From the NCBI GenBank assembly GCA_003507445.1, contig DNVR01000019.1, positions 76,395-140,394 of the forward strand: a DNA stretch of 64,000 bases, given 5' to 3'. Position 1 is the stretch's first letter, and each line of letters starts with the position of its first letter. This document shows, in pieces, positions 193 to 62,883 of the stretch. The stretch is from Candidatus Moraniibacteriota bacterium. Its GTDB lineage: Bacteria; Patescibacteriota; Minisyncoccia; Moranbacterales; GWC2-37-73. A model generated the notes under the pieces. It was given only the letters and a program-made list of their open reading frames with translations. It was not told where the DNA came from and ran no database searches. A program made the translations under genes and the position numbers.

Positions 193-316
193 AAAGTTAA
201 AAGTCTAAGGTCTAAGTACTGAATCAAATCTAAAGTTTAAAATATAAAGTTGGCGGATACTTTTTACTTTGTAATTTAGAATTGAATTAGTCTTTAAAAT
301 TTAGTCTTTAGAATTT
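193..316. repeat. Degenerate ~7-bp periodic array with inverted second arm
   Basis: aagtctaaggtctaag..aatcaaatctaaagtttaaa, then ..tttagaattgaattagtctttaaaatttagtctttagaattt; same architecture as 5148-5258. Confidence 0.6.
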
Positions 317-324
317 CAGAAAGT

Positions 325-1329
325 ATGGTTCGATTTACTACCAAAAAAATAGATTCTTTGACGCTTGGTGAGCGAATGAAGAAGCTTAGGGATGAGCGCA
401 GATTGAGCTTAAGCGAAATATCCAAAAGCACCAAGATCCAAACGAAATATTTGGAATATCTTGAAGATGGTGTGTATATGAAACTTCCTGCTGATGTGTA
501 TGTCAAAGGTTTCCTCAGAAGCTATGCTATTTTTATGGGTCTTAATGAATTGGCGTTGATTAAGCAATTTGAAAGAGAAAAAGGAATTCATAAAAACATT
601 AAAAAAGTTGTTGAAAATGACGGGACATCACTACCTTTGGGTTTTTCAAGTCTTGTGATCACACCAAAAATGATAATTGTCAGTGCGATTTTGCTAGTTG
701 TTGTTTCAAGTTTTATTTATCTGTATATGGAGGTAAATAATTTTGTTTCAAAGCCGCGTCTGAATGTCATTAAGCCCGCTGATGGCTCCACAGTAATTGG
801 AAGTTCAACACATGTGACAGGTGTGGCTGAAAAGGGAGCTTTGATTTTTATCAATGAACAACCTGTCTTGGTTAATGAAAAAGGAGAATTTAGCGAGGAC
901 GTGGGCTTGAAACCAGGTTTAAATGTGATCAATGTTAAGGCTAGGAGCAAATTTAACAAAGAAGATGTTAAATCTGTTTCAGTAAATGCTGATTTCCAAA
1001 GTGTCGTTAATGAACAAGTAAATTCTGAAGATGTGAATCAAGTTGATCAAGCAGCACCTATTAATCCAATTGCATTGGAAATATATGTAAGTCCAAATCC
1101 AACTTGGATGTCAATTGAGGCTGATGGTAATTTGGTTTATAGTGGGGTTTTGCTTCCAGAGTCGGTGCAAACTTTCAACGCTAATGAAAAAATCAGTGTA
1201 ACCTCTGGAAAAGGCAATGAGACTTTTGTAAAAATAAATGGAAAAGACCTTGGAATATTGAGCAGTGATAATGGTGTCGTCAGAGACATTGTGTATGATG
1301 CAAATGGAAAAATTGAGGATAAAAAATAA
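325..1329 (+). CDS. RodZ-like protein (N-terminal HTH, TM helix, Ig-like domain, DUF4115-like C-terminus)
   Basis: [34 protein letters not shown] and [15 protein letters not shown] motifs; TM segment; lies between ftsK and recA. Confidence 0.8.
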
Positions 1330-1336
1330 AATTAAA

Positions 1337-1415
1337 TAACAAACAACTTACAACTTACAACTCGCAACTCACAACTCATCGTTTGTTATTAGTTGATTGT
1401 TGTCAGTTGTTAGTT
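1337..1415. repeat. Heptamer array (CAACTTA-like) with inverted arm
   Basis: caacttacaacttacaactcgcaactcacaact ... agttgattgttgtcagttgttagtt. Confidence 0.8.
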
Positions 1416-1424
1416 AAAAATTAT

Positions 1425-2468
1425 ATGGCGTACGCTGCAAAAGAAAAAAAACCAGCCAAGGAGGCGGTTGAAGAAATAAAAAATGCAGGAAAAAAAGAGA
1501 TTGATAAATTGGTGGATGATATGCAGGAAAAGTTTGGAGAGGGGATGCTGATGAAATTGGGAGATGTGAAAAGGGTTGATATCGAAGCTATTCCTACAGG
1601 TTCAATATCTCTGGATATTGCAACTGGAATTGGTGGAATGCCACGAGGAAGAATTGTGGAAATCTATGGGCCAGAATCTTCCGGAAAAACCACTCTGACA
1701 TTGCACGTTGTGGCTAATGCTCAAAAACAAGGTGGAACAGCTGCTTTTGTGGATGCGGAACACGCTCTTGATCCAGAATATGCCAAGAAGATTGGAGTGG
1801 ATATTAAGAACTTGTTGGTTTCGCAGCCAGACAATGGAGAACAAGCCTTAGACATAGTTGAATCTTTGGTGCGCTCAGGCGTGGTGGATGTTGTGGTTGT
1901 TGATTCAGTGGCTGCACTTGTACCAAAAGCTGAAATTGAAGGAGAGATGGGCGACCAGCACGTGGGAAGACAAGCACGTTTGATGTCTCAAGCTCTTAGA
2001 AAATTGACTGCAATTATTGCACGCTCAAACACAACCGTAATCTTCATCAATCAGATTCGTATGAAAATTGGTGTGATGTTTGGCAACCCAGAAACAACAA
2101 CTGGTGGACAAGCACTTAAATTTTATTCTTCAGTGCGCGTGGAAGTTCGTCGTGCTGCTCAGATTAAAAAAGGCGAGGACGTTGTTGGAAATCGCGTGAA
2201 GGTTAAAATTGTAAAAAATAAAGTTGCTCCACCATTCAAGACTGCAGAATTTGATATTATGTATAACGAAGGAATTTCAATGGCGGGAGATTTGCTTGAT
2301 GCTGGTGTGAAATTTGAGGTAGTTAAAAAATCTGGCAACTCACTTTCTTATGGCGACATTAAGCTTGGCGCAGGTCGCGAAAGTGCCAAGGCATTCTTGC
2401 GAGAAGACAAAAAGACTGCTGACAAAATCTTCAAGGAAATCGCTGAGAAAGCTAAAATAGCTGCTTAG
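1425..2468 (+). CDS. recA: Recombinase RecA
   Basis: GPESSGKTT Walker [23 protein letters not shown]; start moved to ATG 1425 because the upstream ORF extension is repeat DNA. Confidence 0.99.
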
Positions 2469-2529
2469 GCTTTAGCTTGGGGAATCCCGTTTTCCCTAAA
2501 AAGTTAATGCCTGAGAAGCTGCTTGCTTG

Positions 2530-2558
2530 TTGACAAAAGTCCATTTTGGGTGTATAAT
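2530..2558 (+). promoter_or_regulatory. Sigma70-type promoter
   Basis: TTGACA (2530-2535), 17 bp spacer, TATAAT (2553-2558). Confidence 0.8.
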
Positions 2559-2645
2559 GGACATATAAGGATAAAAAACGGGTGTCAAAGCCCGTTTTTT
2601 CTTTAATTTAATTAAATTTTGCTCGGGGGAGCAACAAAAACAAAA

Positions 2646-2786
2646 ATGGAAAAAACCCACAAATGCGTACATTGCGCAAAAAGACACAAAGAAGAGTCGC
2701 AAAATGAGGAATTTAACTTCGCAGTGCTAATCGCACTAGTTCCACTTATGGTCTTTACCCTATTTGGACAAATCGGACTTATCTAA
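2646..2786 (+). CDS. 46-aa small membrane protein with CxxC motif
   Basis: MEKTHKCVHCAKRHKEESQNEEFNFAVLIALVPLMVFTLFGQIGLI*; consensus promoter upstream and terminator downstream; below the ORF-track cut-off. Confidence 0.7.
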   Translation: MEKTHKCVHCAKRHKEESQNEEFNFAVLIALVPLMVFTLFGQIGLI

Positions 2787-2809
2787 AAATTGAATAAAAA
2801 TATATATAA

Positions 2810-3533: not shown

Positions 3534-3618
3534 TCATGTAGCATGTAGCATGTAACATGTAGCATGCAAAAACTGCATTGCATTTTTGTTATATGTTATA
3601 TGTTTTATGTTATATGAT
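3534..3618. repeat. Heptamer array (CATGTAG) with inverted arm (TGTTATA)
   Basis: catgtagcatgtagcatgtaacatgtagcatg ... tgttatatgttatatgttttatgttatatg. Confidence 0.85.
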
Positions 3619-3836: not shown

Positions 3837-3951
3837 ACACGAATATTCACAGATAATAAACTAATTTTCACGAATAACAAATTTTAATTTTAAAAATTCG
3901 TGTTGATTAGTGATTAGTGTGAATTCGTTTTAAATTAGTGCAAATTAGTTG
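3837..3951. repeat. CACGAAT/ATTCGTG inverted array
   Basis: acacgaatattcacagat..cacgaat ... attcgtgttgattagtgattagtgtgaattcgt. Confidence 0.7.
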
Positions 3952-4448: not shown

Positions 4449-4539
4449 CATGTAGCATGTAGCATGTATCATGTAGCATCAGAAGAAAAAATCTATCTTT
4501 TGCATTTTTGTTACACGTTATATGTTTTATGTTATATGA
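4449..4539. repeat. Heptamer array (CATGTAG) with inverted arm
   Basis: Near copy of 3534-3618, including the tgcatttttgtta spacer. Confidence 0.85.
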
Positions 4540-5103: not shown

Positions 5104-5147
5104 ACGCGTTTTTTAAATTAGTTATTAAATGTTAATTAGCTTAATAA

Positions 5148-5258
5148 TTCTAAAAGGCTAAGTATTAAAGTTTAAATCAAATCTAAATTTTAAAGTATAA
5201 ACTTTGTACTTTTTTACTTTAGAATTGTTTTAGTATTTAGACCTTAGATTTTAACCTT
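5148..5258. repeat. Degenerate ~7-bp periodic inverted array
   Basis: ctaagtattaaagtttaaatcaaatctaaattttaaag ... tttagaattgttttagtatttagaccttagattttaacc. Confidence 0.6.
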
Positions 5259-15724: not shown

Positions 15725-17212
15725 ATGAAAAAGTCAAGATTACAGCGGAAAGTAGCTGAGCTGCCTCAAAATCCGGGGGTGTATTTTTTTCGTGATCAAG
15801 AGGGTAAGATTTTATATATTGGCAAGGCGACAAACCTTCGTTCCAGAGTTCAGTCGTATTTTCGCAATGTCATCCCGAACTCGTTTCAGGATCTAGATGA
15901 GCCTAGCGAGATGCTGAAACAAGTTCAGCATGACACAAAGGGATTCTTGAGCGTTCCTGGGCGGAGTGAATGGATTGGGTTGATGGTGGCTCAAGTTGTG
16001 GATATTGATTTTGAGCAGACGGATTCAGTTTTGGAAGCGCTGATTTTGGAAAGCAATTTAATTAAAAAATATCAGCCAAAATATAATACTCTGGAGAAAG
16101 ATGATAAATCATTTTCGTATTTTGTTGTCACTAAAGAAGAATTTCCAAAAGTTTTGATTGTGAGAAAAACAGATTTAGTTTGTCATCCCGCACTTGATGC
16201 GGGTTCCAGTCACACGCACAAATCTGGCTCAGCTCTGGATTCCCGCCTACGCGGGAATGACAAGGCCTCAAAGCCTTGTAAAAAAATACAAAATACCAAA
16301 TACCAGATACCATATACCAAGACCTTCGGTCCTTATACGAGCAAGCAACAAATGCAGACCGCGCTGAAAATTATCCGTCGCATTTTCCCGTTTCATGCTG
16401 GGAAACAAAAAACTGAAAAAGGCTGTTTGGATTTTCAAATCGGTCTTTGTCCTGGGCCGTACGCTGATGCAATTTCAAAAACTGATTATAAAAAAAATAT
16501 TCGAGGGATTGAAATGATTTTGCAGGGGAAGAAAAAAAGCTTGATTTCAAAAATGGAAAAAGAAATGCAAGTTTTTTCCAAAAAAAATGAATTTGAAAAA
16601 GCGGCAGTTCTCCGAAATAAAATTTTTGCATTGCAGCACATTCGCGATGTGGCACTGATGACAAGGGAGATGGAACATGGAGCATGGAACATGGAGCATG
16701 AAATACAAGATACAAAATACCAAATACCAAATACCAGAATCGAGGCTTATGATATCTCCAACATCTCTGGACAATATGCTGTTGGTTCAATGGTGGTTTT
16801 TGAAAATGGTATGCCGAATAAATCGCAGTATCGCAAGTTTAAAATAAAAACTGTTGATGGCAGTAATGATGTGGCGATGATGAAAGAAGTTTTGTCGCGA
16901 AGATTTAATAATGATTGGTCAATGCCAGATTTGATTTTGCTGGATGGCGGACAGGGACACGTTAATATGGCAGGGGATTTGGTGCGCGAATTAGGACTAG
17001 ATTTGTTGATTGTCGGTGTGGCTAAAGGTAAGACGCGTAAAAATCTCAATTTCCAATTTCCAATTTCCAATAAAATCCCAATGTCTCAATTTCCAAAAGA
17101 AATGCAAGAGTTTTTAAATGATAAGAATCTGGTTAAATCTATTATGGATGAGGCTCACCGCTTTGCAATTGCTTATCATCGAAAATTACGCAGTAAAAAC
17201 GCCTTAAAATAA
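15725..17212 (+). CDS. uvrC: Excinuclease ABC subunit C-like protein (GIY-YIG, UVR, RNaseH-like; no HhH tail) with five repeat-derived insertions
   Basis: PGVYFF..LYIGKATNLRSRVQSYF, IEAYDISN, LLDGGQG, DEAHRFAI. Confidence 0.95.
   Translation: MKKSRLQRKVAELPQNPGVYFFRDQEGKILYIGKATNLRSRVQSYFRNVIPNSFQDLDEPSEMLKQVQHDTKGFLSVPGRSEWIGLMVAQVVDIDFEQTDSVLEALILESNLIKKYQPKYNTLEKDDKSFSYFVVTKEEFPKVLIVRKTDLVCHPALDAGSSHTHKSGSALDSRLRGNDKASKPCKKIQNTKYQIPYTKTFGPYTSKQQMQTALKIIRRIFPFHAGKQKTEKGCLDFQIGLCPGPYADAISKTDYKKNIRGIEMILQGKKKSLISKMEKEMQVFSKKNEFEKAAVLRNKIFALQHIRDVALMTREMEHGAWNMEHEIQDTKYQIPNTRIEAYDISNISGQYAVGSMVVFENGMPNKSQYRKFKIKTVDGSNDVAMMKEVLSRRFNNDWSMPDLILLDGGQGHVNMAGDLVRELGLDLLIVGVAKGKTRKNLNFQFPISNKIPMSQFPKEMQEFLNDKNLVKSIMDEAHRFAIAYHRKLRSKNALK
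15868..15935. mobile_element. TGTCAT..ATGACA element in frame within uvrC
   Basis: Encodes VIPNSFQDLDEPSEMLKQVQHD; gctgaaacaagttcagcatgaca arm shared with the elp3 copies. Confidence 0.85.
16181..16262. mobile_element. TGTCAT..ATGACA element in frame within uvrC
   Basis: tgtcatcccgcacttgatgcggg..ggattcccgcctacgcgggaatgaca; encodes CHPALDAGSS..LDSRLRGND. Confidence 0.85.
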
Positions 17213-17892: not shown

Positions 17893-19413
17893 ATGCAAAA
17901 AATAACAGTTCCAATCATTGGAATGCATTGCAAATCTTGTGAAATTCTTGTTGAAAATAAGCTTTCTGAAATCAGCAAGATCAAAAAAATAGACGTCAAT
18001 TGTAAGAAAGGAACAGCTGATATTTATTACGAATCTCAAAAACCCAATATGGTGGAAATAGAAAAAGCCATCAGGGAAGCGGGTTATGCGGTTGGAGTGG
18101 CAGAAAAAAAACCGTTGTTCAGTCGGAATATAAATGAATATAAAGATTTGGGGATCGCCTTTTTGTTTCTGTTTGGTATTTATTTGATTGCAAAAAATTT
18201 AGGGCTAGCTGACATTGGAGTAAGTTCCGCATCAAATCCATCGAGCTTGGGCGTGGTTTTCTTGGTGGGGATTACGGCTGGGATTTCAACTTGTATGGCG
18301 TTGGTGGGAGGTTTAATTTTGGGAATTTCTGCTCGTCATTCTGAGAAACATCCTGAGGCTACTGCCGCGCAAAAGTTTCGTCCGCATTTATTTTTCAATG
18401 CCGGCAGGATTGTGATTTACGCCTTGTTGGGTGGACTGCTTGGTTTGATCGGTTCTTCATTTCAATTGTCGGGAGTGACTTTGGGAATTCTGACAATTGC
18501 AGTAGGAGTTGTGATGTTGTCACTTGGACTAAAATTGATTGGAATTTTTCCTCGTTTGGAAAATGGTGGAATAGCTTTGCCGAAAAGCATCAGCAGTGCG
18601 TTGGGCATTCACCCTGTTAAATCCTGCGAAGCAGGTGCTCGCAGTAGCGAGCAATTTAACAGGGTAAAAAATAATACCAAAGAATATAGTCATAAAAATT
18701 CATTCGTTATGGGTGGACTGACATTTTTCTTGCCCTGTGGCTTCACGCAAGCGATGCAACTTTATGCTGTGAGCAGTGGAAGTTTCACTCAGGGTGCAAT
18801 GATTATGGGTATTTTTGCACTTGGAACAGCTCCTGGACTCTTGGGTATTGGCGGTCTGGCTAGTGTGGTGCGCGGAATTTTTGCTCAAAGATTTTTTAAG
18901 TTCGCTGGAATCCTCGTGATATTTTTGGCGATGTTTAATATTGCCAATGGATATAATCTGACTGGCTGGCAAGTGTCGAAAGTTGAAAGTCGAAAGTTGA
19001 AAGTTGAAAGTGTGATTGATCCTAATGTGACAATGGAAAACGGCGTGCAGGTTGTTAGAATGAAGGAAATTGCCAGTGGATATTCTCCGAACAAATTCAC
19101 AATCAAAAAAGACGTGCCAGTGAAATGGATTATTGATGCTCAGGCTCCGTATTCTTGTGCCAGCAGTCTTGTGGTTTCAAGTTTGAAAATTCAAAAAACT
19201 TTAAAGGCAGGCGAAAACATTATTGAATTTACACCAACAAAAACAGGTAAAATCCCATTTTCTTGTTCTATGGGTATGTATACTGGCGCATTCACAGTTA
19301 TTGATGAAAATAGTGATGAGGTGGTGGTTGAAGACGACCTGGTTGAAAAGCAGGCTTCTGGTGGAATATGCAATAAGCAAGGATGTAATATAAATAAAGA
19401 TCGAATTAAATAA
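17893..19413 (+). CDS. HMA domain + DsbD_2/TauE-like membrane domain + cupredoxin fusion
   Basis: GMHCKSC, STCMALVGG, FFLPCGFTQ, FSCSMGMY. Confidence 0.9.
   Translation: MQKITVPIIGMHCKSCEILVENKLSEISKIKKIDVNCKKGTADIYYESQKPNMVEIEKAIREAGYAVGVAEKKPLFSRNINEYKDLGIAFLFLFGIYLIAKNLGLADIGVSSASNPSSLGVVFLVGITAGISTCMALVGGLILGISARHSEKHPEATAAQKFRPHLFFNAGRIVIYALLGGLLGLIGSSFQLSGVTLGILTIAVGVVMLSLGLKLIGIFPRLENGGIALPKSISSALGIHPVKSCEAGARSSEQFNRVKNNTKEYSHKNSFVMGGLTFFLPCGFTQAMQLYAVSSGSFTQGAMIMGIFALGTAPGLLGIGGLASVVRGIFAQRFFKFAGILVIFLAMFNIANGYNLTGWQVSKVESRKLKVESVIDPNVTMENGVQVVRMKEIASGYSPNKFTIKKDVPVKWIIDAQAPYSCASSLVVSSLKIQKTLKAGENIIEFTPTKTGKIPFSCSMGMYTGAFTVIDENSDEVVVEDDLVEKQASGGICNKQGCNINKDRIK
18611..18665. mobile_element. 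CCCTGTTAAAT..ATTTAACAGGG hairpin element in frame in the copper gene
   Basis: 12-bp terminal inverted repeat with two internal hairpins; encodes HPVKSCEAGARSSEQFNRV. Confidence 0.8.
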
Positions 19414-19550: not shown

Positions 19551-19564
19551 GAATTAAAAAATAT

Positions 19565-22351
19565 ATGAAAAGAATAAACCTGTCTCTTTCTGGAATGCAC
19601 TGTGCTTCCTGTGCAATGTTGATTGAAAAAGTGCTTGCAAAAACTCCTGGTGTACAAAAAGCCAGTGTGAATTTTTCTGCAGAAAAAGTTTTGATTGATT
19701 TTGATGAAAATATAACCGATCCGCAAAAACTTATTGCTGCAATAGTTAAAGGTGGATATGGTGCTGAAGAAATTGATGCTAAAGATAGTGAATTTGAAAA
19801 GAAAAAAAGGGATCATGAGATCTCAGAATATTTTTCAAAATTTATGTTTAGCGCTTTGCTTAGTGTGCCGATGTTGTATTTTATGCTTTTGGATTTTTTT
19901 AAATGGCTTCCAGGGGAAAAAACTTTTGCGCCATACATTGGTGTGTTTTCATTGCTTTTGACAATTCCTGTGCAGTTTGTGATTGGTTCAGGCTTTTACA
20001 AGGGAATGTGGTCATCGCTAAGGATGAAGACGTTTAATATGGACAGCTTGATTGCAATTGGAACTTCGACTGCTTTTTTCTTCAGTTTGTATAACTATGT
20101 GACATATGTCATTGCTAATAATTCCTTGATCGGAGTTGGTGGTATGAAAATTCCTGATCTGTATTTTGAAACAGCAGCTTATTTGATCACATTTGTGATT
20201 CTTGGAAAATGGTTGGAAATTAGAACAAAGGGAAAGACATCTGATGCGATCAAAAAATTGATGGGGCTGCAAGCGAAAACAGCCCGCGTGATTCGTGGTG
20301 GCGAGACGCTTGATATTGCAATTGATGACGTGATTCATGGTGATATCATTATTGTTCGCCCTGGAGAAAAAGTTCCTGTTGATGGAAAAATTACCAAGGG
20401 AACATCTGCCGTGGATGAATCTATGATTACAGGAGAAAGCTTGCCAGTAGAAAAAAATATCGGAAGTATGGTTGTTGGTGGAACTATTAATAAGACAGGA
20501 AGCTTTGAGTTTGAAGCTACAAAAATTGGTTCAGAAACAACATTAGCTCAAATCATTCGCTTGATTGAAGAAGCGCAAGGATCAAAAGCACCGATTCAAA
20601 ATTTTGCCGACAGTATTTCTGCTTGGTTTGTTCCAGCTGTGATTGGAGTTGCAATTTTGACTTTCATTGTCTGGTATTTTTTCTTGGGAGCAACTTTAGC
20701 TTTTGCTTTGTTGGCATTTACTTCGGTAATTGTGATTGCATGCCCATGTGCACTTGGTTTGGCAACCCCGACATCATTAATGGTTGGAACAGGTAAGGGC
20801 GCTGAATATGGCGTGCTTGTAAAAGGTGGAGAAGCGCTTGAAGCTGCAAGCAATATTTCAGCTGTAGTCTTTGACAAGACTGGAACGCTTACCAAAGGAA
20901 AGCCTGAGGTGGTAAAAATAATTTCAAATCCTGCTTTTGATTTTGATGAGGATAAGATTTTAAAAATATCATCAAGCATTGCAAAACATTCCAATCATCC
21001 CTTGTCTCAAGCTGTTGTAAGATATGGCGAAAAACAAAATATTCAACTAGCTGATTTTGGAGATTTTCAAGAAGTCCCTGGAAAAGGAATAATTGCAAAA
21101 TGCTTAACACATAATAAGGAAATAGTTTTGGGTAATATTAGAATTCTAGAGCAAGTAGGAGTCCAAACTTCTTGGGCAAAAAATCTTCTGGAAAATGAAT
21201 CTGTAAGCGCTGGGACATTACTTTTTGTGGTGCATAATGGCGATGTTGTGGGGGCAATTTCAATTGCTGATGAAGTAAAAGAAGAATCAAAAAAAGTGGT
21301 GGCAAAACTTCAAAAAATGGGTATTGAGGTTTGGATGATTACTGGAGACAATGCGCGCACAGCAAAAGCTATTGGCTTGCAGGTTGGAATCACAAATATT
21401 TTGGCAGAAGTTTTACCAGAAGATAAAGCTAACGAAGTTAAGAAACTTCAAGCTCAAAAAATAAAAAAACATTTCCATTTGTTTGGAAATTGGAAATTAG
21501 AAATTGGAAATTCCACCCGCAGGGTGGCTATGGTTGGAGATGGAATTAATGACGCTCCTGCACTAGCTCAAGCTAATGTAGGAATCGCAATGGGATCAGG
21601 AACTGATGTGGCAATGGAGGCAGGCGACATTGTTATAATGAAAAGTGATCTGAATGATGTGGTAACTTCATTTGAACTTTCAAAAGAAACGATGGGTAAA
21701 ATAAGACAAAATATGTTTTTTGCTTTATTTTACAATGTGATTGGAATTCCAATTGCTGCTCGTGTTTTCTTTGGAATCGGCTTGGTGTTAAAACCAGAAC
21801 TAGCAGGACTTGCTATGGCGATGAGTTCTATTTCAGTAGTTGGAAATTCATTGCTTCTTAAATTATTCAAGCCTGGCAAGAGAAACTATATTTCTTTGGT
21901 TGCGCCAATTATTATGATGGTAGTTTTCACGTTCGGATTTTATGAATTTGCAAAATTCAGCAGTGGAATGGAGAATACAGTTATTAATGAGGAGCAAATA
22001 AGGGTTGAATTTAATAAATTGAATTTGAATGCCCAAATAGAAATCATAAGTGAAGAGGCTGGAGTAAAGGCATTTTATTTTACTGATGAAAATAATGTTC
22101 CAAAAGAATTGCGGGAAGAAATAAACAGCAAAAGTTTCACGCCTGAAATAATCAATGGAAAAAAATATCAGAAAGTTTATATTGGTTGGGTAGAGGCGCA
22201 GATGATGATTGAAAAAGAACTTATCCAAAAATCAGGGGACAGAGCGGATGATTTTTTTGGAAACAGTGTCATCATTGAAATCTTGCCCAAAACCAAAACC
22301 ATTCTCGACAATTTCCATTTTGTCGGAGCTGATTTTCAGATCAAGAAATAG
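19565..22351 (+). CDS. copA: Copper-translocating P1B-type ATPase with C-terminal extension
   Basis: [34 protein letters not shown] and MAMSS motifs. Confidence 0.95.
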
Positions 22352-23884: not shown

Positions 23885-24027
23885 GTTACGTAACAGGTTA
23901 CGTAACACTCAAATATTGATAGGCTTTACATTTCGGGTTTTTGCTGATACAATTATCTCCAGTATAAATTTGAAATCTGGACTTGAAACAAAGAAAAATA
24001 TGATTTAGAGAAAGACCTGTTTTAATG

Positions 24028-47119: not shown

Positions 47120-49615
47120 ATGAAATACGAACCAAAAGAAATTGAACCAAAATGGCAAAATAGATGGGAAAAATCTGGTTCTTTCAAGATTGACAAGGAT
47201 GATGAGTCTAAAGAAAAATTTTATATTCTTGATATGTTTCCATATCCCTCTGGAACAGGACTTCATATGGGGCATACGGAAAGCTATACTGCTAGCGATG
47301 TTTTTTATCGTTTCAAAAAAATCCAAGGTTACAATGTTTTGCATCCACAAGGCTTTGATTCATTTGGTCTTCCAGCAGAAAATTATGCCATTAAAACAGG
47401 GGTAAAGCCAGCTGAAACAACTCAAAAAAATATTGCTACCTATATTGAACAAATGAAGTCTTTGGGTTTTGATTATGATTTTAATGAAAAGGTAATAACT
47501 TCTGATCCTTCGTATTATAAATGGACACAATGGATCTTTGGAAAATTTTTTGAAAATGGTTTGGTTTATAAAAAAACACAAAAAACCAATTGGTGCTCAT
47601 CTTGTCAAACTGTTATTGCTAATGAACAAGTGGTGGATGGTAAGTGTGAGAGATGTGGAACTGAAATAATACAAAAAGAGGTTCCAGGATGGTTTTTCAA
47701 AATCACGGATTTTTCCGACGAGCTGATTGCTGGGTTGGGAAAAGTTGATTGGCCAGAATATACCAAAAAAAATCAAATAAATTGGATTGGAAAATCGCAG
47801 GGTGCTCTTTTGAAATTTGAAATTAAAAATTCGGAAAAATATATTGAAGTGTTCACAACGCGACCCGACACTTTGTTTGGAGCGACTTATATGGTGTTGG
47901 CGCCTGAACATAAATTAGTAAATGAATTGAAAGATGAAATTTCTAACTGGAATGATGTTGAAAAATATATAATTCAAACTCAAAATAAAACAGAGTTGGA
48001 CAGAATGGAAGCCAAGGAAAAGACGGGGGAAAAATTGGAAGGTGTGATGGCTATAAATCCAGCAACAGGCGGTGAAATTCCAATTTTTATTGCTGATTAT
48101 GTTTTGGCTGGATATGGAACTGGAGCTATTATGGCAGTGCCGGCTCACGATGAGCGCGACTTTGAATTTGCAAAAAAATATAACATTCCAATTGTGGAAG
48201 TTATCTCTGGAGGGAATATTGAAGAAAAAGCTTACACTGAAAATGGGGAGCTGGTTAATTCTGGAAAATTTAATGGAATGTCAGTTGAGGATGCTAAAAG
48301 GGGAATCACTGAATTTGTTGGTGGAAAAATGACAGCAACATATCGTTTGCGTGACTGGTCTTTTTCTAGGCAGCGTTATTGGGGTTGTCCGATTCCGATT
48401 GTGTATTCTCCAGAAGGCGAAGCTAAAATGGTTCCCGAAAAATATTTGCCATGGAAACTTCCTGAAGATGTTGATTTTGTTCCAACCGGAGTGGCTCCAC
48501 TTTCCAAATCAGAAGAATTAAAAAAACGTGTTGAAGATATTTTTGGTCAGGGATGGACGGCTGAATATGACACAATGGACACATTCGTGGATTCTTCTTG
48601 GTATTTCTTGCGCTATCCTGATTCGCATAATGAAAAGGAATTTTGTTCAAAAGAAAGGCTTGCGAAATGGATGCCGGTAGATTTGTACATTGGAGGAGCA
48701 GAGCATACCTATATGCATCTTTTGTATGCCAGATTTTTTACAAAAGCGATGCATAAGATTGGTTTGATCAATTTTGATGAACCTTTTCTTAAGCTTCGCC
48801 ATCAAGGAATGGTGCTGGACAAGGAGGGTAAAAAAATGTCCAAGTCTAAAGGCAATGTTATTAATCCTGATAGTATGGTGGAAAAATTCGGCGCTGACAG
48901 CGTTCGAACATATATGCTTTTTGCAGCACCATTGGAAGATGAGGTGATGTGGAATGAAGACAATATTGTTGGTGTTCGAAGATTTTTGGACAGAATTTGG
49001 GAATTTATAGTTAAAGACAAGGAGCGAGATCCGGAATGGTTTAAGTTGTGGCTCAATATAGATGAATGGAACAAATCTAAAGGACCTACGCCCACTTCAT
49101 TAAAGATATTATTAAACAAAACAATAAAAAAAGTTACTGAGGATATGGAAAATTTTAGGTTTAATACTGCTATAAGTCAGTTAATGATTTTTAGAAATGC
49201 TTTTTATAAAATAGATCAGGGAGATGCTAATGATATTTATAAAACAGGCATGGAATCTAAATTATCAACATTGATAACGGTGGATGATTTTGAAAAATTT
49301 TTAATTTTGCTAGCTCCTTTTGCTCCACACATTGCTGAAGAGATCTGGCAGGAAATATTAGAACATAAAGAATCCATATTTTTACAAGATTGGCCAGAAG
49401 TTGATGAAAAATATTTGCAGGATGAAGAAGTTGAAATGGTGGTGCAGGTGAATGGAAAAGTTCGCGATCGTTTGATGGTGGCGCATGATGTCACTGAAGA
49501 CGAGGTAAAAGAAACAGTTCTTGAAAGTGGAAAAGTTAAGGTTTTTACTGATGGAAAAGAAATAAAGAAAATTATTTTTGTTCCAGGGAAACTTATTAAT
49601 ATCGTTGCTGTTTAA
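47120..49615 (+). CDS. leuS: Leucine--tRNA ligase
   Basis: MFPYPSGTGLHMGH, FTTRPDT, KMSKSKGN, VVQVNGKVR. Confidence 0.98.
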   Translation: MKYEPKEIEPKWQNRWEKSGSFKIDKDDESKEKFYILDMFPYPSGTGLHMGHTESYTASDVFYRFKKIQGYNVLHPQGFDSFGLPAENYAIKTGVKPAETTQKNIATYIEQMKSLGFDYDFNEKVITSDPSYYKWTQWIFGKFFENGLVYKKTQKTNWCSSCQTVIANEQVVDGKCERCGTEIIQKEVPGWFFKITDFSDELIAGLGKVDWPEYTKKNQINWIGKSQGALLKFEIKNSEKYIEVFTTRPDTLFGATYMVLAPEHKLVNELKDEISNWNDVEKYIIQTQNKTELDRMEAKEKTGEKLEGVMAINPATGGEIPIFIADYVLAGYGTGAIMAVPAHDERDFEFAKKYNIPIVEVISGGNIEEKAYTENGELVNSGKFNGMSVEDAKRGITEFVGGKMTATYRLRDWSFSRQRYWGCPIPIVYSPEGEAKMVPEKYLPWKLPEDVDFVPTGVAPLSKSEELKKRVEDIFGQGWTAEYDTMDTFVDSSWYFLRYPDSHNEKEFCSKERLAKWMPVDLYIGGAEHTYMHLLYARFFTKAMHKIGLINFDEPFLKLRHQGMVLDKEGKKMSKSKGNVINPDSMVEKFGADSVRTYMLFAAPLEDEVMWNEDNIVGVRRFLDRIWEFIVKDKERDPEWFKLWLNIDEWNKSKGPTPTSLKILLNKTIKKVTEDMENFRFNTAISQLMIFRNAFYKIDQGDANDIYKTGMESKLSTLITVDDFEKFLILLAPFAPHIAEEIWQEILEHKESIFLQDWPEVDEKYLQDEEVEMVVQVNGKVRDRLMVAHDVTEDEVKETVLESGKVKVFTDGKEIKKIIFVPGKLINIVAV

Positions 49616-49623
49616 TAATCTTT

Positions 49624-54035: not shown

Positions 54036-55094
54036 ATGGATATTAAGAAACTGCAGCAATTTTTGCAAGAAAATAATTTGCCTAAGTTTCGTTTGGGGCA
54101 AATTCAAAAAGCCATCTTTACTGATGGCGTTTCTTCGTTTGGGGAAATAACAACACTTTCCAAGGATTTGCGAGAAAAAATGGAAAAGGAAATGCGGTTG
54201 CTTTCTTTTGATGTTGAAAAAGTTTTAGTGGCTAAGGATGGACAATCAATAAAAGCTTTGTTAAAACTTTCTGATGGAGAGTTGATTGAAACTGTTTTGA
54301 TTTCGCCTAAGCCAGAAATTTGGTCAGCTTGCATTTCTTGCCAAGTCGGCTGTGCGATGGGTTGCAGGTTTTGCGCGACTGGCAAGATGGGGTTCAAGCG
54401 TGACCTTACCGCTGAAGAAATTACTGATCAAATTTTATTTTGGAAACAATATCTTAAAAAAAATTCTTCTGCTTTGTTTGGAAATTGGAAATTGGAAATT
54501 GGAAATTGCGATGTTGATAACATCGTCTATATGGGTATGGGAGAGCCATTTAATAATTGGAAAAATGTTGCTGAGAGTATAAAAGTTTTGACTGATGAAA
54601 AGTTATTTGGATTTGGCTCACGTTCTTTGTCTGTTTCCACTTCGGGCATCGCCGACGGCATTGAAAGAATGGCTAATGAATTTCCGCAAGTTAATTTGGC
54701 AATTTCCCTTCATTTTGCGAGCGACGAAAAACGCGACCGATTTATGCCAGTCAATAAAAAAGATAATCTGGAAAATTTGCGACAAGCGCTGAAAAAATAT
54801 TTTCAAATTACAACGCGTAAAGTTTTTTTGGAGTATATTATGTTGGATGGAATAAACGACACTGCCCTTGATGCAAAGTTGCTGGCTGATTTTATATATT
54901 CAATTGGTAACACCCATCTTCTTCATATGAATCTCATTCGATACAATATGACAAGCGAGGACCTAAAGCCATCTTCAAAAACTCGCACGCAACTTTTCAA
55001 ACAAGAACTTGAAAAACACAACATTAACGCTACCATAAGAAAAAGTCTCGGCGAAGAAATCGAAGCCGCCTGCGGACAACTTGCTGGTAAGTAG
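54036..55094 (+). CDS. rlmN: 23S rRNA/tRNA m2A methyltransferase RlmN
   Basis: CAMGCRFC, MGMGEP, AACGQL. Confidence 0.95.
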   Translation: MDIKKLQQFLQENNLPKFRLGQIQKAIFTDGVSSFGEITTLSKDLREKMEKEMRLLSFDVEKVLVAKDGQSIKALLKLSDGELIETVLISPKPEIWSACISCQVGCAMGCRFCATGKMGFKRDLTAEEITDQILFWKQYLKKNSSALFGNWKLEIGNCDVDNIVYMGMGEPFNNWKNVAESIKVLTDEKLFGFGSRSLSVSTSGIADGIERMANEFPQVNLAISLHFASDEKRDRFMPVNKKDNLENLRQALKKYFQITTRKVFLEYIMLDGINDTALDAKLLADFIYSIGNTHLLHMNLIRYNMTSEDLKPSSKTRTQLFKQELEKHNINATIRKSLGEEIEAACGQLAGK

Positions 55095-55133
55095 TAGAAA
55101 GTATTTTGTAAAACGTATAATGTATAAAAATAA

Positions 55134-55625: not shown

Positions 55626-57331
55626 ATTTTTTTAACTAAATAAGTTTGACTTAGTTTGTATCCTTGTTTTCTGTAGTATCCTCTCACTCCCACTCCTGAA
55701 ATTACTACAATTTTTTTGAGGTCGTATTCTTCTTTGGCAATTCTTTCAGCTTCTAATAATAATTTTTTGCCAAGGCCGATGTGTTGTGGGGAAGTTGAAT
55801 CTAGCGTGTCTATTTTTGTTAGTTTTCCGTAAGTGTGAACTTCTCTAATGATGGCTGCATTTTTTAGAACTGGAAGCATATCATGAAGTTTGTCATGCTG
55901 AACTTGTTTCAGCATCTCGTTTGGCATATTGACTTTGCTGGATCCTGAAACAAGTTCAGCATGACACGTTGAACTTGGGATGCGTAGACGCAATAATGCA
56001 AACAATTTTTTCTTGTCCGGTGAAACATATTGCAGAAATATTTCCTTGCCGTCTGAGGCAGCATAATCAATGCGATCTAAAACAATTTTTTCTTTTACAA
56101 TATATCCTGCACCAACTTCACGACAACGAATGCAAGGACAATTGGACTTAGGAATAATAATTTGTCTAAGATTGGAAACTGTCGGACCGGCCACAATGGA
56201 TGGAGTAGGAACATCGCGAATAAGGCGAGCAATGCGCACATATGGCGTGATTGCTTCGTTTTTTATCTTCACTACAAGCCTCTCAAACGCTTGATTTGTC
56301 AGTGGGACATACTTTTTCTTCTTCCAGATGTCATACAGCTCACTGTTTTTTAAAACGACTGTAGGGTATATCTTGAGCATATCAGGTTGAAATCTGGGAC
56401 CTTCAAAAAGGGCCTTAAACATCTCAAAATCGCGTTTTGGGGTGCTTCCCGGAAGTCCCGGCATCATATGATAGTTTATCTTAAAACCACTATCCTTGAG
56501 CATTTTGGTAGCATCTATGGTGCTTTGGATGAGGTGTCCACGCTTGTTTAATTCGAGTACATCATCATAAAGACTTTGCACACCAAGTTCAACTCTCGTG
56601 CAACCAAGTTGACGAAAGTTCAAAATTTCTTTTTCATCAATATAATCCGGCCGCGTCTCCAAAGTGAGCCCAATAATTCTATGTTTCGCTTTTTCGTTTC
56701 TCTTTTGCTCGCGCAGTAGTTTGTCATGCTGAACTTGTTTCAGCATCTCGCCAAGCTGTTTGGCACTTCTGGATCCTGAAATGAATTCAGGATGACAACG
56801 CGGATAATCGTTGGCAGCCTTAAAGCACCCGTAAATAAATTTTTTCTGATACGCCTTTGGCAGAAAAGAAAATGTTCCACCCATCACAATTAATTCAATT
56901 TTATCTGTGCGATGACCGTTGAGCTCCAATGAGCGCAAGCGGTTTTGAACTTGTCTATATGGATCAAACTGAGAATCAATTGCGCGCATCACAGCTGGTT
57001 CATTGGAGAGATAACTCTTAGGCATATCTTTCTCACTAGGACAATAAATGCATTTACCGGGGCAGGGATATGACTTGGTAAGCACTGCCACCACAGCCAC
57101 ACCGGATTGGGTGCGAATCAAGCGACTCATCAAGGCTTCTTCAAATTTTTCACTGCGTTTGATTTTCTTTTGCTCAACTAATTTATTATATCTATCTCGC
57201 AAATCAGCATTGGTAGGCATTGCAACTCCGAATTTTTTACAAAGACTTTTTTTGAGTTTGCCAAAATCTCCCTGATTTTCAGAAAGTTCGTTTATTGCGG
57301 AGATTATATAATTGTCGTAAGATTGGCTCAT
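55622..57331 (-). CDS. elp3: Elp3-type tRNA U34 carboxymethyltransferase (radical SAM + KAT)
   Basis: CPGKCIYCP, GGTF, ETRPD, LKIYPT, IREVHTYG, QHIGLG, ISGVGVRGYYRK. Confidence 0.93.
   Translation of the reverse strand: MSQSYDNYIISAINELSENQGDFGKLKKSLCKKFGVAMPTNADLRDRYNKLVEQKKIKRSEKFEEALMSRLIRTQSGVAVVAVLTKSYPCPGKCIYCPSEKDMPKSYLSNEPAVMRAIDSQFDPYRQVQNRLRSLELNGHRTDKIELIVMGGTFSFLPKAYQKKFIYGCFKAANDYPRCHPEFISGSRSAKQLGEMLKQVQHDKLLREQKRNEKAKHRIIGLTLETRPDYIDEKEILNFRQLGCTRVELGVQSLYDDVLELNKRGHLIQSTIDATKMLKDSGFKINYHMMPGLPGSTPKRDFEMFKALFEGPRFQPDMLKIYPTVVLKNSELYDIWKKKKYVPLTNQAFERLVVKIKNEAITPYVRIARLIRDVPTPSIVAGPTVSNLRQIIIPKSNCPCIRCREVGAGYIVKEKIVLDRIDYAASDGKEIFLQYVSPDKKKLFALLRLRIPSSTCHAELVSGSSKVNMPNEMLKQVQHDKLHDMLPVLKNAAIIREVHTYGKLTKIDTLDSTSPQHIGLGKKLLLEAERIAKEEYDLKKIVVISGVGVRGYYRKQGYKLSQTYLVKKI
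55891..55966. mobile_element. 76-bp TGTCAT..ATGACA element in frame in elp3
   Basis: Encodes CHAELVSGSSKVNMPNEMLKQVQHD. Confidence 0.85.
56722..56797. mobile_element. 76-bp TGTCAT..ATGACA element in frame in elp3
   Basis: Encodes CHPEFISGSRSAKQLGEMLKQVQHD. Confidence 0.85.
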
Positions 57332-57404
57332 GAAACATGAAACATGTAGCATGTAACAAAAAAGCTTTTTAATTCAGATTTGTTATATGTTGTATGTTAT
57401 ATGA
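57329..57404. repeat. Heptamer inverted array filling the divergent elp3/methyltransferase spacer
   Basis: catgaaacatgaaacatgtagcatgtaac ... tgttatatgttgtatgttatatg. Confidence 0.8.
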
Positions 57405-57407
57405 TAT

Positions 57408-58106
57408 ATGAAAATTGAAACTGCTAATAAAATTTTACAGGAGACTGAGCTGGGTTACGATCTGATTTCTAAGAAATTTTCCGAGACCCGGAAGCATTTT
57501 TGGCGTGGGCTGGAGTTCATAAAGGATTATACGCACAGCGGCGATAATGTTTTGGATTATGGCTGTGGCAATGGCCGCCTTTTGGAATTGTTGGCTGATA
57601 AAAATATAAATTATCAGGGAGTTGATGTTTCCCAGAAGCTCGTTGACCTTGCCAAAAGCAAATATACTGGAGAAAATATTGAGTTTTCCAAAATAAGCTC
57701 CAGTCAAATTAGCTTAGCATTTGAGACGGGATTTTTCAATACCGTTTATAGCATTGCGGTTTTTCATCATTTTCCTTCAAAAAAATATCGCGAGGATGTG
57801 GCAAGAGAACTTTATGAAAAAACAAAAGACGGTGGGTATATTGTGGTAACGGTTTGGTTTCTTTGGCAAAAAAAATATTTGAAAAATATTTTACAAAATT
57901 GGATTAATAAAATAAAAGGGAATAGCGCATTGGATTGGAATGATTGTTCAATTTCTTTTACGGATAACTCTGGAGCGCGGGTTGAAAGATTTCACCATGC
58001 CTTCACAAAGAGAGAACTGAAAAAACTTTTTGAACTAGTGGGGTTTAAAACAGAAAAATGTGAAGTTGTTGATGGAAGAAATATTTTGTACATAGGAAAA
58101 AAATAG
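57408..58106 (+). CDS. Class I SAM methyltransferase, Trm9/ALKBH8-like
   Basis: YDLISKKFSETR..W, VLDYGCGNGR, SIAVFHH, RFHHAFTKREL. Confidence 0.8.
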   Translation: MKIETANKILQETELGYDLISKKFSETRKHFWRGLEFIKDYTHSGDNVLDYGCGNGRLLELLADKNINYQGVDVSQKLVDLAKSKYTGENIEFSKISSSQISLAFETGFFNTVYSIAVFHHFPSKKYREDVARELYEKTKDGGYIVVTVWFLWQKKYLKNILQNWINKIKGNSALDWNDCSISFTDNSGARVERFHHAFTKRELKKLFELVGFKTEKCEVVDGRNILYIGKK

Positions 58107-58166: not shown

Positions 58167-58211
58167 TTACCATATAAGGTAGAATTTTTAATTTTTAATT
58201 CTTAATTTTCA

Positions 58212-58490
58212 ATGAAAAAAGAAGAAAAAGTTGCATCCGAAAAAGATGCGGCTGAAAAAATTGTGAATCGTATTTCTCGCATCGAAGGGCAACTTAGAGG
58301 TGTGCGAAAAATGGTTGAGGACAAAAAGCAATGCTTGGATGTGATCACTCAAATCACTGCCATTCGTGAGGCGGTTTCGATGTTGGGAATAGAACTTCTT
58401 AAAAACGATTTTGTTTGCAAATTTGATGGAAAGAAAAAAATAGATGAGAAATATCTTAAATCATTGTTTAAGATGTCAGCCAAAGGCTGA
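58212..58490 (+). CDS. CsoR/RcnR/CstR family transcriptional regulator
   Basis: NRISRIEGQLRGVRKMV..CLDVITQITA..NDFVC. Confidence 0.92.
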   Translation: MKKEEKVASEKDAAEKIVNRISRIEGQLRGVRKMVEDKKQCLDVITQITAIREAVSMLGIELLKNDFVCKFDGKKKIDEKYLKSLFKMSAKG

Positions 58491-58872: not shown

Positions 58873-58961
58873 GTATAACATAAAATATAAAACATGGAGC
58901 ATGGAACATGGAGCAAGAATTTTTGATCCAATGATCTATGCTGTATGATCCATGATTCATG
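58873..58961. repeat. Heptamer array (CATGGAR) with inverted arm
   Basis: catggagcatggaacatggagc ... tgatctatgctgtatgatccatgattcatg. Confidence 0.75.
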
Positions 58962-60543: not shown

Positions 60544-60618
60544 AACTAACTAACAACTCACAACTAGCAACTAACAACGTTCATTTGTTGATAGTTGTAT
60601 GTTATCAGTTATAAGTTA
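60544..60618. repeat. Heptamer inverted array between the two tRNAs
   Basis: aactaacaactcacaactagcaactaacaac ... gttgatagttgtatgttatcagttataagtt. Confidence 0.8.
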
Positions 60619-61143: not shown

Positions 61144-61267
61144 TCTTTGTTGTTTCAATGTATTTTGACCCGTCGATGGTGGCGGGTCTTTAATTTGACA
61201 AAAAACCGCAGATAATGTACACTTTAAATAAAGAAAGCCCCAGGGGCTTTTTAAAAAACCTTAAAAT

Positions 61268-61357
61268 CATATAGCATATAGCATATAGCATATAGCAAAA
61301 ATACCAATAAAGTTGCTGTTTGCCTAAAATTGTTACATGTTACATGTTACATGTTAA
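61268..61357. repeat. Heptamer array (CATATAG x4) with inverted arm (TGTTACA x4)
   Basis: catatagcatatagcatatagcatatagca ... tgttacatgttacatgttacatgtta. Confidence 0.9.
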
Positions 61358-61543
61358 ATGAATAGTATTATACAGTTTTTCCTTGAAGCTAAGGCAGAAA
61401 TGCTGAAAGTGAATTGGCCAACAAAGAAGCAAACAGTGAATTATACATTGCTTGTGGTCGCAGTTAGTTTGGTTGTTGCAGGATTTCTTGGAGGATTGGA
61501 CTGGATTTTTAGTTACATCTTGAAGACATTTATCATAAAGTAA
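61358..61543 (+). CDS. secE: Preprotein translocase subunit SecE
   Basis: EMLKVNWPTKKQ plus TM helix; upstream of nusG. Confidence 0.95.
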   Translation: MNSIIQFFLEAKAEMLKVNWPTKKQTVNYTLLVVAVSLVVAGFLGGLDWIFSYILKTFIIK

Positions 61544-61707
61544 AAATATTGAGTGGCATCCCAGTCACGATTCCAAAGATAGTTTTCTGAAATTTGTAGT
61601 TATGCTCACGGAATCGCCTATGGCTTTGTCACATGTAGTTTAAGGATTAATTAAAGAATCGAGACGGGACGCTCATTTTTGTAGCTGCTCGTACCTCGCA
61701 GACAAAA

Positions 61708-62253
61708 ATGGCGAAACAGACACAACATCATGGGCGAGCTTGGTATGTGATTCACACATACTCTGGCTATGAAGACAATGTTACTCGAAATTTGAAGCAG
61801 CGTATTGAATCAATGGATATGCAAGACTTGATCTTCGATGTAATGGTGCCAAAGGAAAACAAGATTAAAATTAAGAATGGAAAAAGAACTGTTATTGAAG
61901 AACGAATTTACCCAGGATACGTATTGGTAAATATGGTGGTGACTGATGCATCTTGGTATGTTGTTCGAAACACGCCGAACGTGACTGGATTTATTGGGCT
62001 TGGAACAACACCAACGCCAGTTGATCCAAAGGAAATAGAAATGCTTAAAAAGAGAATGGGTGTTTCTGAACCAAAATACAAGATTGATCTTAAAAATGGT
62101 GATGCAGTTAAAATCAACGAAGGACCATTTAAAGATTTTGATGGAAAGGTTCAAGAATTTGATGAAGAGAAAGGTAAAGTTAAAGTGTTGGTTACAATTT
62201 TCGGACGTGAAACACCAGTTGAATTGGATTTCTTGCAGATTACTAAAATATAA
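61708..62253 (+). CDS. nusG: Transcription factor NusG
   Basis: WYVIHTYSGYE, YPGYVLV, FGRETPVELDF. Confidence 0.98.
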   Translation: MAKQTQHHGRAWYVIHTYSGYEDNVTRNLKQRIESMDMQDLIFDVMVPKENKIKIKNGKRTVIEERIYPGYVLVNMVVTDASWYVVRNTPNVTGFIGLGTTPTPVDPKEIEMLKKRMGVSEPKYKIDLKNGDAVKINEGPFKDFDGKVQEFDEEKGKVKVLVTIFGRETPVELDFLQITKI

Positions 62254-62256
62254 ATT

Positions 62257-62350
62257 CATATAACATACAACATAGAACATAGAACAAGGGAATTCAGTAC
62301 TGCACGCTTCTGGCATATCTGCTCCATGTTCCATGCTCCATGTTCCATGA
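62257..62350. repeat. Heptamer array (CATAGAA) with inverted arm (TGTTCCA)
   Basis: catataacatacaacatagaacatagaac ... tgctccatgttccatgctccatgttccatga. Confidence 0.85.
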
Positions 62351-62356
62351 AGCATT

Positions 62357-62785
62357 ATGGCGAAGAAAATTAAAACAGTTATTAAATTGCAAATAGTTGG
62401 TGGAAAAGCAAATCCAGCTCCTCCAGTCGGTCCAGTTTTGGGTCAACACGGCGTTGCTATTCAAGAATTTTGCGTGCGTTTCAATGACGCAACTCGCGAC
62501 AAAATGGGAGAAGTTGTGCCAGTTGAAATTACAGTTTTTGAAGATAGAACTTTTGATTTTATTATGAAGACTGCTCCAGCAGCAGAACTTTTGAAGAAAG
62601 CTGCAGGTGCTGAAAAAGGTGCTGGAAATCCTTTGAAAGATAAAGTTGGAAAACCTGTTACCAAGGCTCAATTGGAAGAAATTGCAAAAACTAAAATGGT
62701 TGATCTTAATGCAAATGATGTTGAGGGTGCAATGAAAATTGTGGCAGGAACTGCAAGATCAATGGGAATAAAGATAGAAAACTAG
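62357..62785 (+). CDS. rplK: 50S ribosomal protein L11
   Basis: [22 protein letters not shown]. Confidence 0.99.
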
Positions 62786-62788
62786 AAC

Positions 62789-62883
62789 CCACAAATATAC
62801 AAATAGGCTACAAATCTACAAATAAAATACAAAACAAAAAAAGAGTCCATTTGTAGATTTGTAAGAGATTTGTAGATTCGTGG
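62789..62883. repeat. Inverted array of (C/T)ACAAAT units
   Basis: cacaaatatacaaataggctacaaatctacaaat ... atttgtagatttgtaagagatttgtagattcgtg; the left arm also occurs at about 15015-15050. Confidence 0.8.

Follow-up and report, generated by a model that had tools for sequence, protein, structure and literature searches.

Five-core heptamer arms dispersed in spacers and genes of a Moranbacterales genome and their link to four-helix-bundle cassettes

The question raised by this locus is why many spacers between housekeeping genes of one small bacterial genome hold short tandem arrays of a 7-base unit, arranged as inverted pairs, with the unit changing from site to site. The stretch analysed (hereafter the window, 64,000 nt of a Candidatus Moraniibacteriota bacterium, G000:C11:76395-140394, where G000 is the source genome of 1.06 Mb and 96% completeness) contains recA, efp, uvrABC, three tRNA ligases, tgt, nusG, rplK, rplA and other housekeeping genes, and its only Rfam matches are two tRNAs. 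A sequence-only reading had taken the arrays for the empty footprints of a mobile or RNA-processed unit and had noted that four-helix-bundle genes (TIGR02436) are flanked by such arrays. Comparisons were done with the nearest congener, G007 (668 orthologues, 88.7% mean identity), and with genus, family and phylum samples, G-numbers denoting genomes, L-numbers loci in these samples and X-numbers sequencing runs. The arrays were found to be strongly linked to mobile-looking cassettes that encode four-helix-bundle proteins, and what writes them at other sites is weighed below.

The arrays were estimated against shuffled sequence, and 31 of period 7 were detected in the window as compared with 0.15 on average over 20 local shuffles; among the other periods from 2 to 15, period 14 gave 14 arrays and each remaining period at most one. 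Genome-wide, G000 held 238 period-7 arrays versus 0.7 in shuffles, which bears out the claimed enrichment over other periods and shuffled controls, and a second detector gave 287 arrays in G000 and 261 in G007. All 12 example sites of the sequence-only reading were recovered, and its figure of about 16 paired sites agrees with the 16 counted (14 that were folded, together with 3842-3950 and 31578-31645). At 62789-62883 the arms are paired as described, yet their period is an irregular 8-9 bases rather than 7, and CCTAATA (24023), named as a unit of the paired arrays, proved to be a single arm only. Many arrays do lie in spacers, but they are not confined there as had been supposed: 11 lie in frame within nine window genes, the reading frame being kept open, and 64 of the 287 G000 arrays fall inside open reading frames (ORFs) of at least 150 codons, which make up 77% of the genome. 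At 62693-63242, the place that was checked, the arrays are not an assembly artefact, a contig of run X6 (another study) covering this segment gap-free with 7 differences.

Array pairs less than 130 bases apart were inverted in 55 of 65 cases in G000 (3 direct, 7 other) and in 50 of 63 in G007 (4 direct, 9 other). The arm-pair energy of the 55 G000 pairs was -23.3 kcal/mol, versus -9.1 when the partner was a randomly chosen other arm and -6.8 for shuffled sequence, so the arms pair better than chance, as had been proposed. RNA folding on the better strand gave z <= -2.4 at 11 of the 12 example sites, the exception being 61268-61360 (z -1.8), and DNA folds (n=8) gave a weaker signal, with z from -0.1 to -3.8.

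In an arm, a 3-base core recurs five times, once every 7 bases. The earlier count of roughly four copies holds for whole units, yet a fifth core closes each arm and brings it to 31 bp. Arm length in G000 has its mode at 31 bases (64/287), with 30-32 bases in 135/287. The longest run of a single 3-mer was five in 147, six in 17 and more in 3 of the 287 G000 arrays, and five in 111, six in 10 and more in 10 of the 261 from G007. Counting independently of the detector, runs of four, five, six and more cores at spacing 7 numbered 172, 164, 17 and 4, respectively, and spacings of 8, 10 and 11 gave at most four runs of five cores each. Units are homogeneous within one array and vary between sites; a few core words are common to many sites, and the tails are family-specific. 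Within the CAT unit, a T is among the positions that vary, and two As are fixed. The typical order on the mRNA strand is stop codon, left arm, loop, right arm and start codon; of 87 co-oriented pairs of G000 and G007, 60 have the left arm no more than 15 bases from the stop and 54 the right arm no more than 12 bases from the start, and at 61358 the final right-arm core doubles as the start codon ATG. In coding DNA, AAT runs at spacings 7, 10 and 13 were counted as 807, 816 and 841 for two cores, 40, 19 and 31 for three, 14, 1 and 2 for four, and 9, 0 and 0 for five, respectively. There is thus no excess of two cores and barely any of three beside a clear excess of four and five, which argues that the tracts arrive whole.

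The link to genes was found outside the window. G000 has six PF05635 matches, none of them within the window, in agreement with the sequence-only reading, and four of the six are short genes between clear inverted arms (three with 7-base and one with 8-base units). Both GxxExxY genes of G000, which also lie outside the window, likewise have inverted arms, with units of ~9 bases, so the statement that four-helix-bundle genes are flanked by heptamer inverted arrays was confirmed in this genome and extends to GxxExxY genes. The layout of a cassette is left arm, four-helix-bundle gene and inverted right arm, set in a stop/start junction. Among 145 four-helix-bundle ORFs collected from the genus, family and phylum samples (fragments included), arms of at least four cores stood on both sides in 65, on one side in 51 and on neither in 29; 68 cassette arms had five cores and 9 had more. 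The 8-base cassette arms also reach five (10 with five cores, 4 with more), which suggests, in small numbers, that core count rather than a fixed length is held. Each protein clade has its own core word: mapped on the protein tree, the word changed 22 times, against 53 on average and never fewer than 47 in 200 shuffles, for the 90 of 145 rows that remained after those with no arm, odd length or an unclassed word were dropped. Core words of the window recur at cassettes, namely AAT (L003, L005), CAT (L055, L056, L313) and GTA (L001). As a separate observation, L040, L047 and L049 have two or three tandem left arms, as if added repeatedly at one junction.

Four-helix-bundle gene number and the number of five-core sites were correlated over 151 phylum genomes (rho 0.65, with kin not independent). 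At least 10 five-core sites were present in 24 of the 26 genomes with at least five such genes, and the 20 within-family contrasts were concordant in 17, discordant in 1 and tied in 2. The reversed core pattern was unusable as a null over these genomes, as it matches real families. GxxExxY was present in 22/151 genomes; it was ruled out as the driver by its absence from the arm-rich G047, G059 and G125.

The nearest solved relatives of the cassette proteins, 2GSC and 2RLD, have five chains each, and Xcc0516 is described as a homopentamer in the accessible text of one source (PMC4990558; title cited in PMC10053308). The match between the cap at five cores and a homopentameric protein family suggests one core per subunit. 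In the related Avd-RNA complex, as far as the accessible text describes it, flipped-out bases of one RNA are touched by all five protomers (10.1101/2023.10.23.563531).

Seventy-five of the 145 cassettes were mapped to a G000 junction. Related genomes with a cargo gene, as the sequence-only reading had anticipated, were found at two window junctions, leuS-ntp and nusG-rplK, the word in L209 at the latter differing from that of G000. Outside the window, gene-less G000 hairpins at C11:183.9 kb and C11:171.4 kb belong to the same family as cassette L313 and as cassettes L350 and L292, respectively, and the G000 cassette at C13:112 kb corresponds to a plain 54-base spacer in G007. The remaining mapped sites mostly carry arms of another family or just one arm, or else a plain spacer or DNA that is unrelated, which argues that the arms are not simple site-by-site deletion scars, and this candidate was rejected, the family matching at two G000 sites only of the 75 mapped cassettes. 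The notion of empty footprints therefore fits those two sites and fails at most others. In nine window spacers no four-helix-bundle gene was found in the covering congeners (up to eight), which have there either short plain alleles or arms of differing 7-, 8- and 9-base families. G000 and G007 have the same family in 41 of 448 syntenic spacers and different ones in 27; in a further 89, arrays were detected in one genome only, a class that is inflated because the detector misses 8-9-base hairpins. Arms in genes occupy the same loops with different words per species, as insertions (tgt, P-type ATPase) or overwrites (ileS, argS); the ribosomal proteins of these species are 98-100% alike. Two same-site alleles were 99% and 96% alike with sharp edges, their flanking synonymous codons being 52-68% and ~55% alike, respectively; judged from these sequences, this points to probable lateral exchange of short patches between distant congeners.

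On this evidence there is about an even chance that the gene-less arms are binding sites for the pentamer, each written in a single step by recombination of the host. Word families of the cassettes also occur without the gene, as hairpins or single arms, in spacers and genes. Each arm would probably be a binding site of the five-subunit protein encoded by the cassette, one core per subunit, and the bound pentamer might protect or position single-stranded DNA carrying the arms. Host transformation and recombination would then insert cassettes, gene-less derivatives and single arms above chance; G000 encodes ComEC and DprA, and recA lies inside the window. Whole tracts replace the old sequence, one family replacing another at the same site, and selection presumably keeps arms at junctions and in surface loops, where they are harmless, the mRNA stem being left to decay. 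A bolder form, which is tentative and on balance doubted, is that the cassettes may be an enzyme-less selfish class, in which a five-subunit ring with a clade-specific code drives its own gene and loose 31-base sites into junctions and loops; it would then be the source of the bacterial 7-base excess and a programmable five-site nucleic-acid reader.

Several findings weigh against writing of the arms by a DNA-binding pentamer. Arms and gene are physically linked, so the concordance of clade and word reflects co-inheritance and not recognition. Seven of 68 genomes without a four-helix-bundle gene still have at least 10 five-core sites, and three genomes with at least three such genes have few. 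G000 holds 80 CAT-family arrays, and a gene of the cognate clade is absent from it (best match 37%; genome 96% complete). The cap at five is not universal, longer runs occurring in G050, G117 and G173. The sole solved complex of a relative, that of Avd, holds RNA according to the part of the source available (10.1101/2023.10.23.563531). The right arm is richer in G in 20/23 CAT hairpins, following the direction of transcription; this polarity keeps RNA-level and reverse-transcription models alive, and a pure DNA process needs added selection. Spacer identity exceeded that of the flank by 0.05 in 4/84 armed and 4/170 unarmed pairs. As unarmed spacers are exchanged too, lateral exchange is likely a general vehicle and not a property of the arms; homing driven by arms was set aside as unspecific.

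That the arms act as RNA, either as a stem cut by RNase III as in 23S rRNA intervening sequences or through a pentamer that tunes translation at stop/start junctions, is unlikely, even though the placing of left and right arms near stop and start codons, the polarity with transcription and the RNase III of G000 agree with it. The accessible parts of the literature add Coxiella intervening sequences with heptamers before the ORF, cut by RNase III (PMC4990558), RNA binding by Avd (10.1101/2023.10.23.563531) and a translational role proposed for TAACTGA repeats (PMC4679880). The strands speak otherwise: the mRNA strand folded better in only 11/37 hairpins of G000 and 12/37 of G007, and A.C mismatches outnumbered G.U pairs on it in 26/37 hairpins of G000 and 18/37 of G007 (the reverse in 6 in each genome). 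The opposite bias would be expected of a stem maintained for processing, so these mismatches argue against the RNA-processed long stem of the sequence-only reading. Moreover, arms occur in both orientations inside genes, and relatives have no arms or swapped families at the same junction. Cassette arms showed no A.C/G.U bias (63 vs 68). A start-codon remnant of a lost gene in the loops had no strand bias over all families (25 vs 20 of 37); in CAT-hairpin loops it was seen in 9 vs 2 of 23, which is suggestive, the same word also extending the stem. Quite unlikely is copying of cassette ends from RNA by a reverse transcriptase, with the pentamer as partner, as Avd is in diversity-generating retroelements, and the complementary DNA overwriting targets. 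Such copying would fit arms that pair better on the non-mRNA strand, follow the direction of transcription and are diverse and not identical, as well as the weak resemblance of L055 to the Avd model (score 27, below the cut-off of 80; E 3.7e-6), and reverse transcriptases were found in 5/8 congeners (L186-L191; five matches in G002). However, the other three have none and no RVT_1 match was found in G000, the Avd-like gene of L060 has a reverse transcriptase as neighbour and yet is armless, and variation in the CAT unit affects a T but spares two As. An Avd-like gene adjoins a reverse transcriptase at G008:C19 and G007:C4.

It is very unlikely that the gene-less hairpins are MITEs (miniature inverted-repeat transposable elements) moved whole by some transposase or by a GxxExxY nuclease. 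Inverted ends, gene-less derivatives, in-frame insertions, the armed state of both G000 GxxExxY genes and the likeness of AAT-family loops between unrelated sites (median best identity 0.75 vs 0.62 shuffled) are what such movement would leave, but hairpins at different sites reach at best 87% identity (median 76%, 51/55 compared), as against 93-97% in a true repeat family of G000. By inspection, with no formal scan, no target duplication was seen and the old spacer was replaced; single arms occur, and GxxExxY has the narrow distribution given above. Local replication slippage with chance fold-back duplication, involving no protein, would account for units that differ between sites and are homogeneous within an array; it is extremely improbable, as one period dominates with a sharp cap at five and a few core words with family-specific tails are shared, and by the cap and the dependence on gene number it is largely refuted.

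The sites of the window are collected in the table. The gene upstream of the first is presumably ftsK, which it resembles, and the 61-codon ORF at 61358 is taken to be secE-like from position and recall.

Table. Heptamer-type arms and related junctions in the window, by position, with strand
Feature	Position	Strand	Remark
Spacer before rodZ, filled by paired 7-base arms	191..321	+	Fold z -4.2; 9-base family here in G007
Paired arms, AAC core, rodZ-recA spacer	1337..1415	+	Folded; relatives have different families
Paired arms, CAT core, rpsR-efp spacer	3534..3618	-	mRNA on minus strand; z -6.8 on non-mRNA strand, -0.2 on mRNA strand
Degenerate paired arms, ~9-base period, ssb-rpsR spacer	3842..3950	-	Sequence inspection
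Paired arms, CAT core, rpsF-ssb spacer	4449..4539	-	Folded; compared in relatives
Paired degenerate 7-base arms upstream of rpsF	5140..5253	-	z -2.7
Single arm in frame, uvrA variable loop	12776..12807	+	Frame and relatives
Single arm in frame, uvrC	16281..16319	+	Frame and relatives
Two tandem arms of different families in frame, uvrC	16663..16744	+	Frame and relatives
Single AAT-core arm with tail in frame, uvrC	17041..17071	+	Nearly identical DNA in G002
Single arm in frame, DsbD_2/HMA gene	18972..19015	+	Frame and relatives
Single right-type arm in frame, heavy-metal P-type ATPase	21483..21515	+	~19-codon insertion, absent in 3/7 relatives
Single five-core arm before second uvrA	24023..24053	+	Sequence
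Paired arms, AAT core, divergent spacer before tetrapyrrole-methylase (rsmI-like) gene	27470..27586	.	G004 allele 96% identical
Single AAC-core arm in frame, argS	28622..28658	+	Overwrites equal-length stretch
Paired arms, AAC core, argS-GT4 spacer	30157..30242	+	Folded; compared in relatives
Paired 8-base arms, ileS leader	31578..31645	+	Sequence inspection
Single AAT-core arm overwriting 10 ileS codons	34289..34320	+	G000 only, of 8 genomes
Paired arms, AAT core, after recO	35877..35995	+	Folded; compared in relatives
Degenerate single arm at stop codon before tgt	37983..38014	+	Sequence
Single AAT-core arm with tail in frame, tgt	38994..39029	+	~13-codon insertion, absent in 3/8 relatives
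Partial arm in frame, leuS	47809..47831	+	Comparison with relatives
Plain 8-base leuS-ntp junction	49616..49623	+	Armed four-helix-bundle gene here in four relatives (L061, L314, L315, L316)
Single right-type arm in frame, rlmN	54478..54514	+	Relatives: other words, same place
Degenerate single arm, GTA core, rlmN stop	55087..55124	+	Sequence
Paired arms, CAT core, divergent radical-SAM/methyltransferase spacer	57329..57410	.	Folded
Single five-core AAT arm ending at start codon, metal-sensing repressor gene	58183..58213	+	Sequence
Paired arms, CAT core, trxA-trxB spacer	58873..58961	+	G008: 18 plain bases
Pair of five-core arms (AAC core) placed exactly between tRNA-Ala and tRNA-Ile	60544..60618	+	Other spacer alleles in runs X5, X6
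Paired arms, CAT core; last right-arm core is ATG of 61-codon secE-like ORF	61268..61360	+	Sequence
Paired arms, CAT core, nusG-rplK spacer	62257..62355	+	Plain 24-29 bases in 4/7 relatives; armed four-helix-bundle gene in L209
Irregular arm pair with 8-9-base units, rplK-rplA spacer	62789..62883	+	z -7.9

Other repeats and loci were recorded beside the arms. A repeat family of ~135 bases (19419-19555 and ~17749-17880; 24 blastn matches, copies 93-97% alike across G000) occupies the same junctions as heptamer hairpins in relatives. A GC-rich palindromic family (2830-2965, 26869-26985 and 16190-16280; 13-18 G000 matches) includes a copy, at 16190-16280, that is in frame in uvrC and adjoins a heptamer arm. 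Two full uvrA genes (12042-14936 and 24068-26860) and a short uvrC (15725-17212) form one cluster, which is kept in congeners, and a 10-base self-palindrome lies in two tandem copies at 23885-23907, upstream of the second uvrA. A direct repeat of ~40 bases stands twice at ~39360-39480, before an ArsR-family gene. Compared with the syntenic congener genes, argS (28394-30154) has 36-48% identity and leuS (47081-49615) 48-61% or 79-83%, whereas their neighbours have 70-99%, so both are likely whole-gene replacements. At L132 (G006:C4), the spacer orthologous to 57352-57408 holds a 1.8-kb insert with two ORFs between short GC-rich palindromes, and one of these ORFs resembles what we take to be a repetitive extragenic palindrome (REP)-associated transposase.

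Loops in ArgRS, IleRS, TGT, RlmN and UvrC, all essential proteins, are rewritten between such species, and so are spacers, which matters for annotation and for the evolution of small genomes of the candidate phyla radiation. To our knowledge, TIGR02436 is a large family to which no function has been assigned. The rule of five cores ties it and the heptamer excess into one question, with five subunits, five cores and a word per clade. Heptamer repeats are described as over-represented in bacteria, with the mechanism lacking, in the available text of two studies (PMC4692102, PMC4679880). No paper joining dispersed heptamer arrays to four-helix-bundle cassettes was found in a literature search mostly outside subscription papers and not covering supplements.

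Among known systems, short palindromes in spacers and in frame in housekeeping genes characterize MITEs and Rickettsia palindromic elements. The hairpins here likewise lie in spacers and in frame, with terminal inverted repeats around a short non-coding core, but their arms are periodic, may be single and overwrite sequence, and near-identical copies are absent; the genes found between arms are four-helix-bundle and GxxExxY genes (no genome-wide transposase search was made). DNA uptake sequences of Neisseria and Pasteurellaceae are words read by a protein, present as inverted pairs in spacers and in tolerant codons, with lineage dialects. Arms share these placements and lineage-varying words; they differ in that whole 31-base tracts appear with no excess of two-core intermediates and the gene for the candidate reader itself moves between sites of its own. 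Heptamer-type tandem repeats go by the name of short tandemly repeated repetitive (STRR) sequences in cyanobacteria, and the arms fall within this descriptive class, being dispersed, of period 7 and ~four units, mostly intergenic and often in inverted pairs. The heptamers of Xanthomonas (GGGAATC) and Nostoc, as presented in the accessible text, are also of period 7, mostly four units, intergenic and at different sites in related species, with 70 cases of close inverted pairs in Xanthomonas campestris pv. campestris (PMC4692102). That study reports one word per genome, reads it as a G-quadruplex and names neither a cassette nor a protein, 'four helix' not occurring in the portion of its text available (PMC4692102), whereas the present genome has several AT-rich words side by side, none able to form a quadruplex. 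The TAACTGA repeats of Beggiatoaceae are likewise two to six heptamers near start codons, some in frame in ORFs, yet they are almost only direct repeats of one word, with no four-helix-bundle link in the accessible part of the source (PMC4679880). Avd is a related pentameric barrel, five protomers of which sit on one nucleic acid according to the available text (10.1101/2023.10.23.563531); unlike in diversity-generating retroelements, no reverse transcriptase, template or variable repeat is present at the cassettes, and the Avd score is below its cut-off.

The closest likeness is to 23S rRNA intervening sequences (S23p, PF05635/TIGR02436; Coxiella, Leptospira), which are presented in the accessible source as a four-helix-bundle ORF in terminal inverted repeats, with heptamers just before the start codon, and as horizontally acquired, like the cassettes here (PMC4990558). 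An S23p/PF05635 gene between inverted repeats was found in cassettes elsewhere in G000, the window hairpins having no ORF. Every site is located in or between genes for proteins or tRNAs, none in an rRNA gene, and no 23S rRNA gene is assembled in G000. Unlike intervening sequences, the cassettes sit in mRNA junctions with many word families and an mRNA-strand stem that is not maintained, and hundreds of gene-less hairpins and single arms accompany them. The parts are known separately, as the Coxiella heptamers, the Xanthomonas inverted pairs and the Beggiatoaceae sets. The system would be a new form of the intervening-sequence cassette design that does not qualify as an intervening sequence, MITE, diversity-generating retroelement or uptake sequence, and it would be a class of its own if binding and drive hold.

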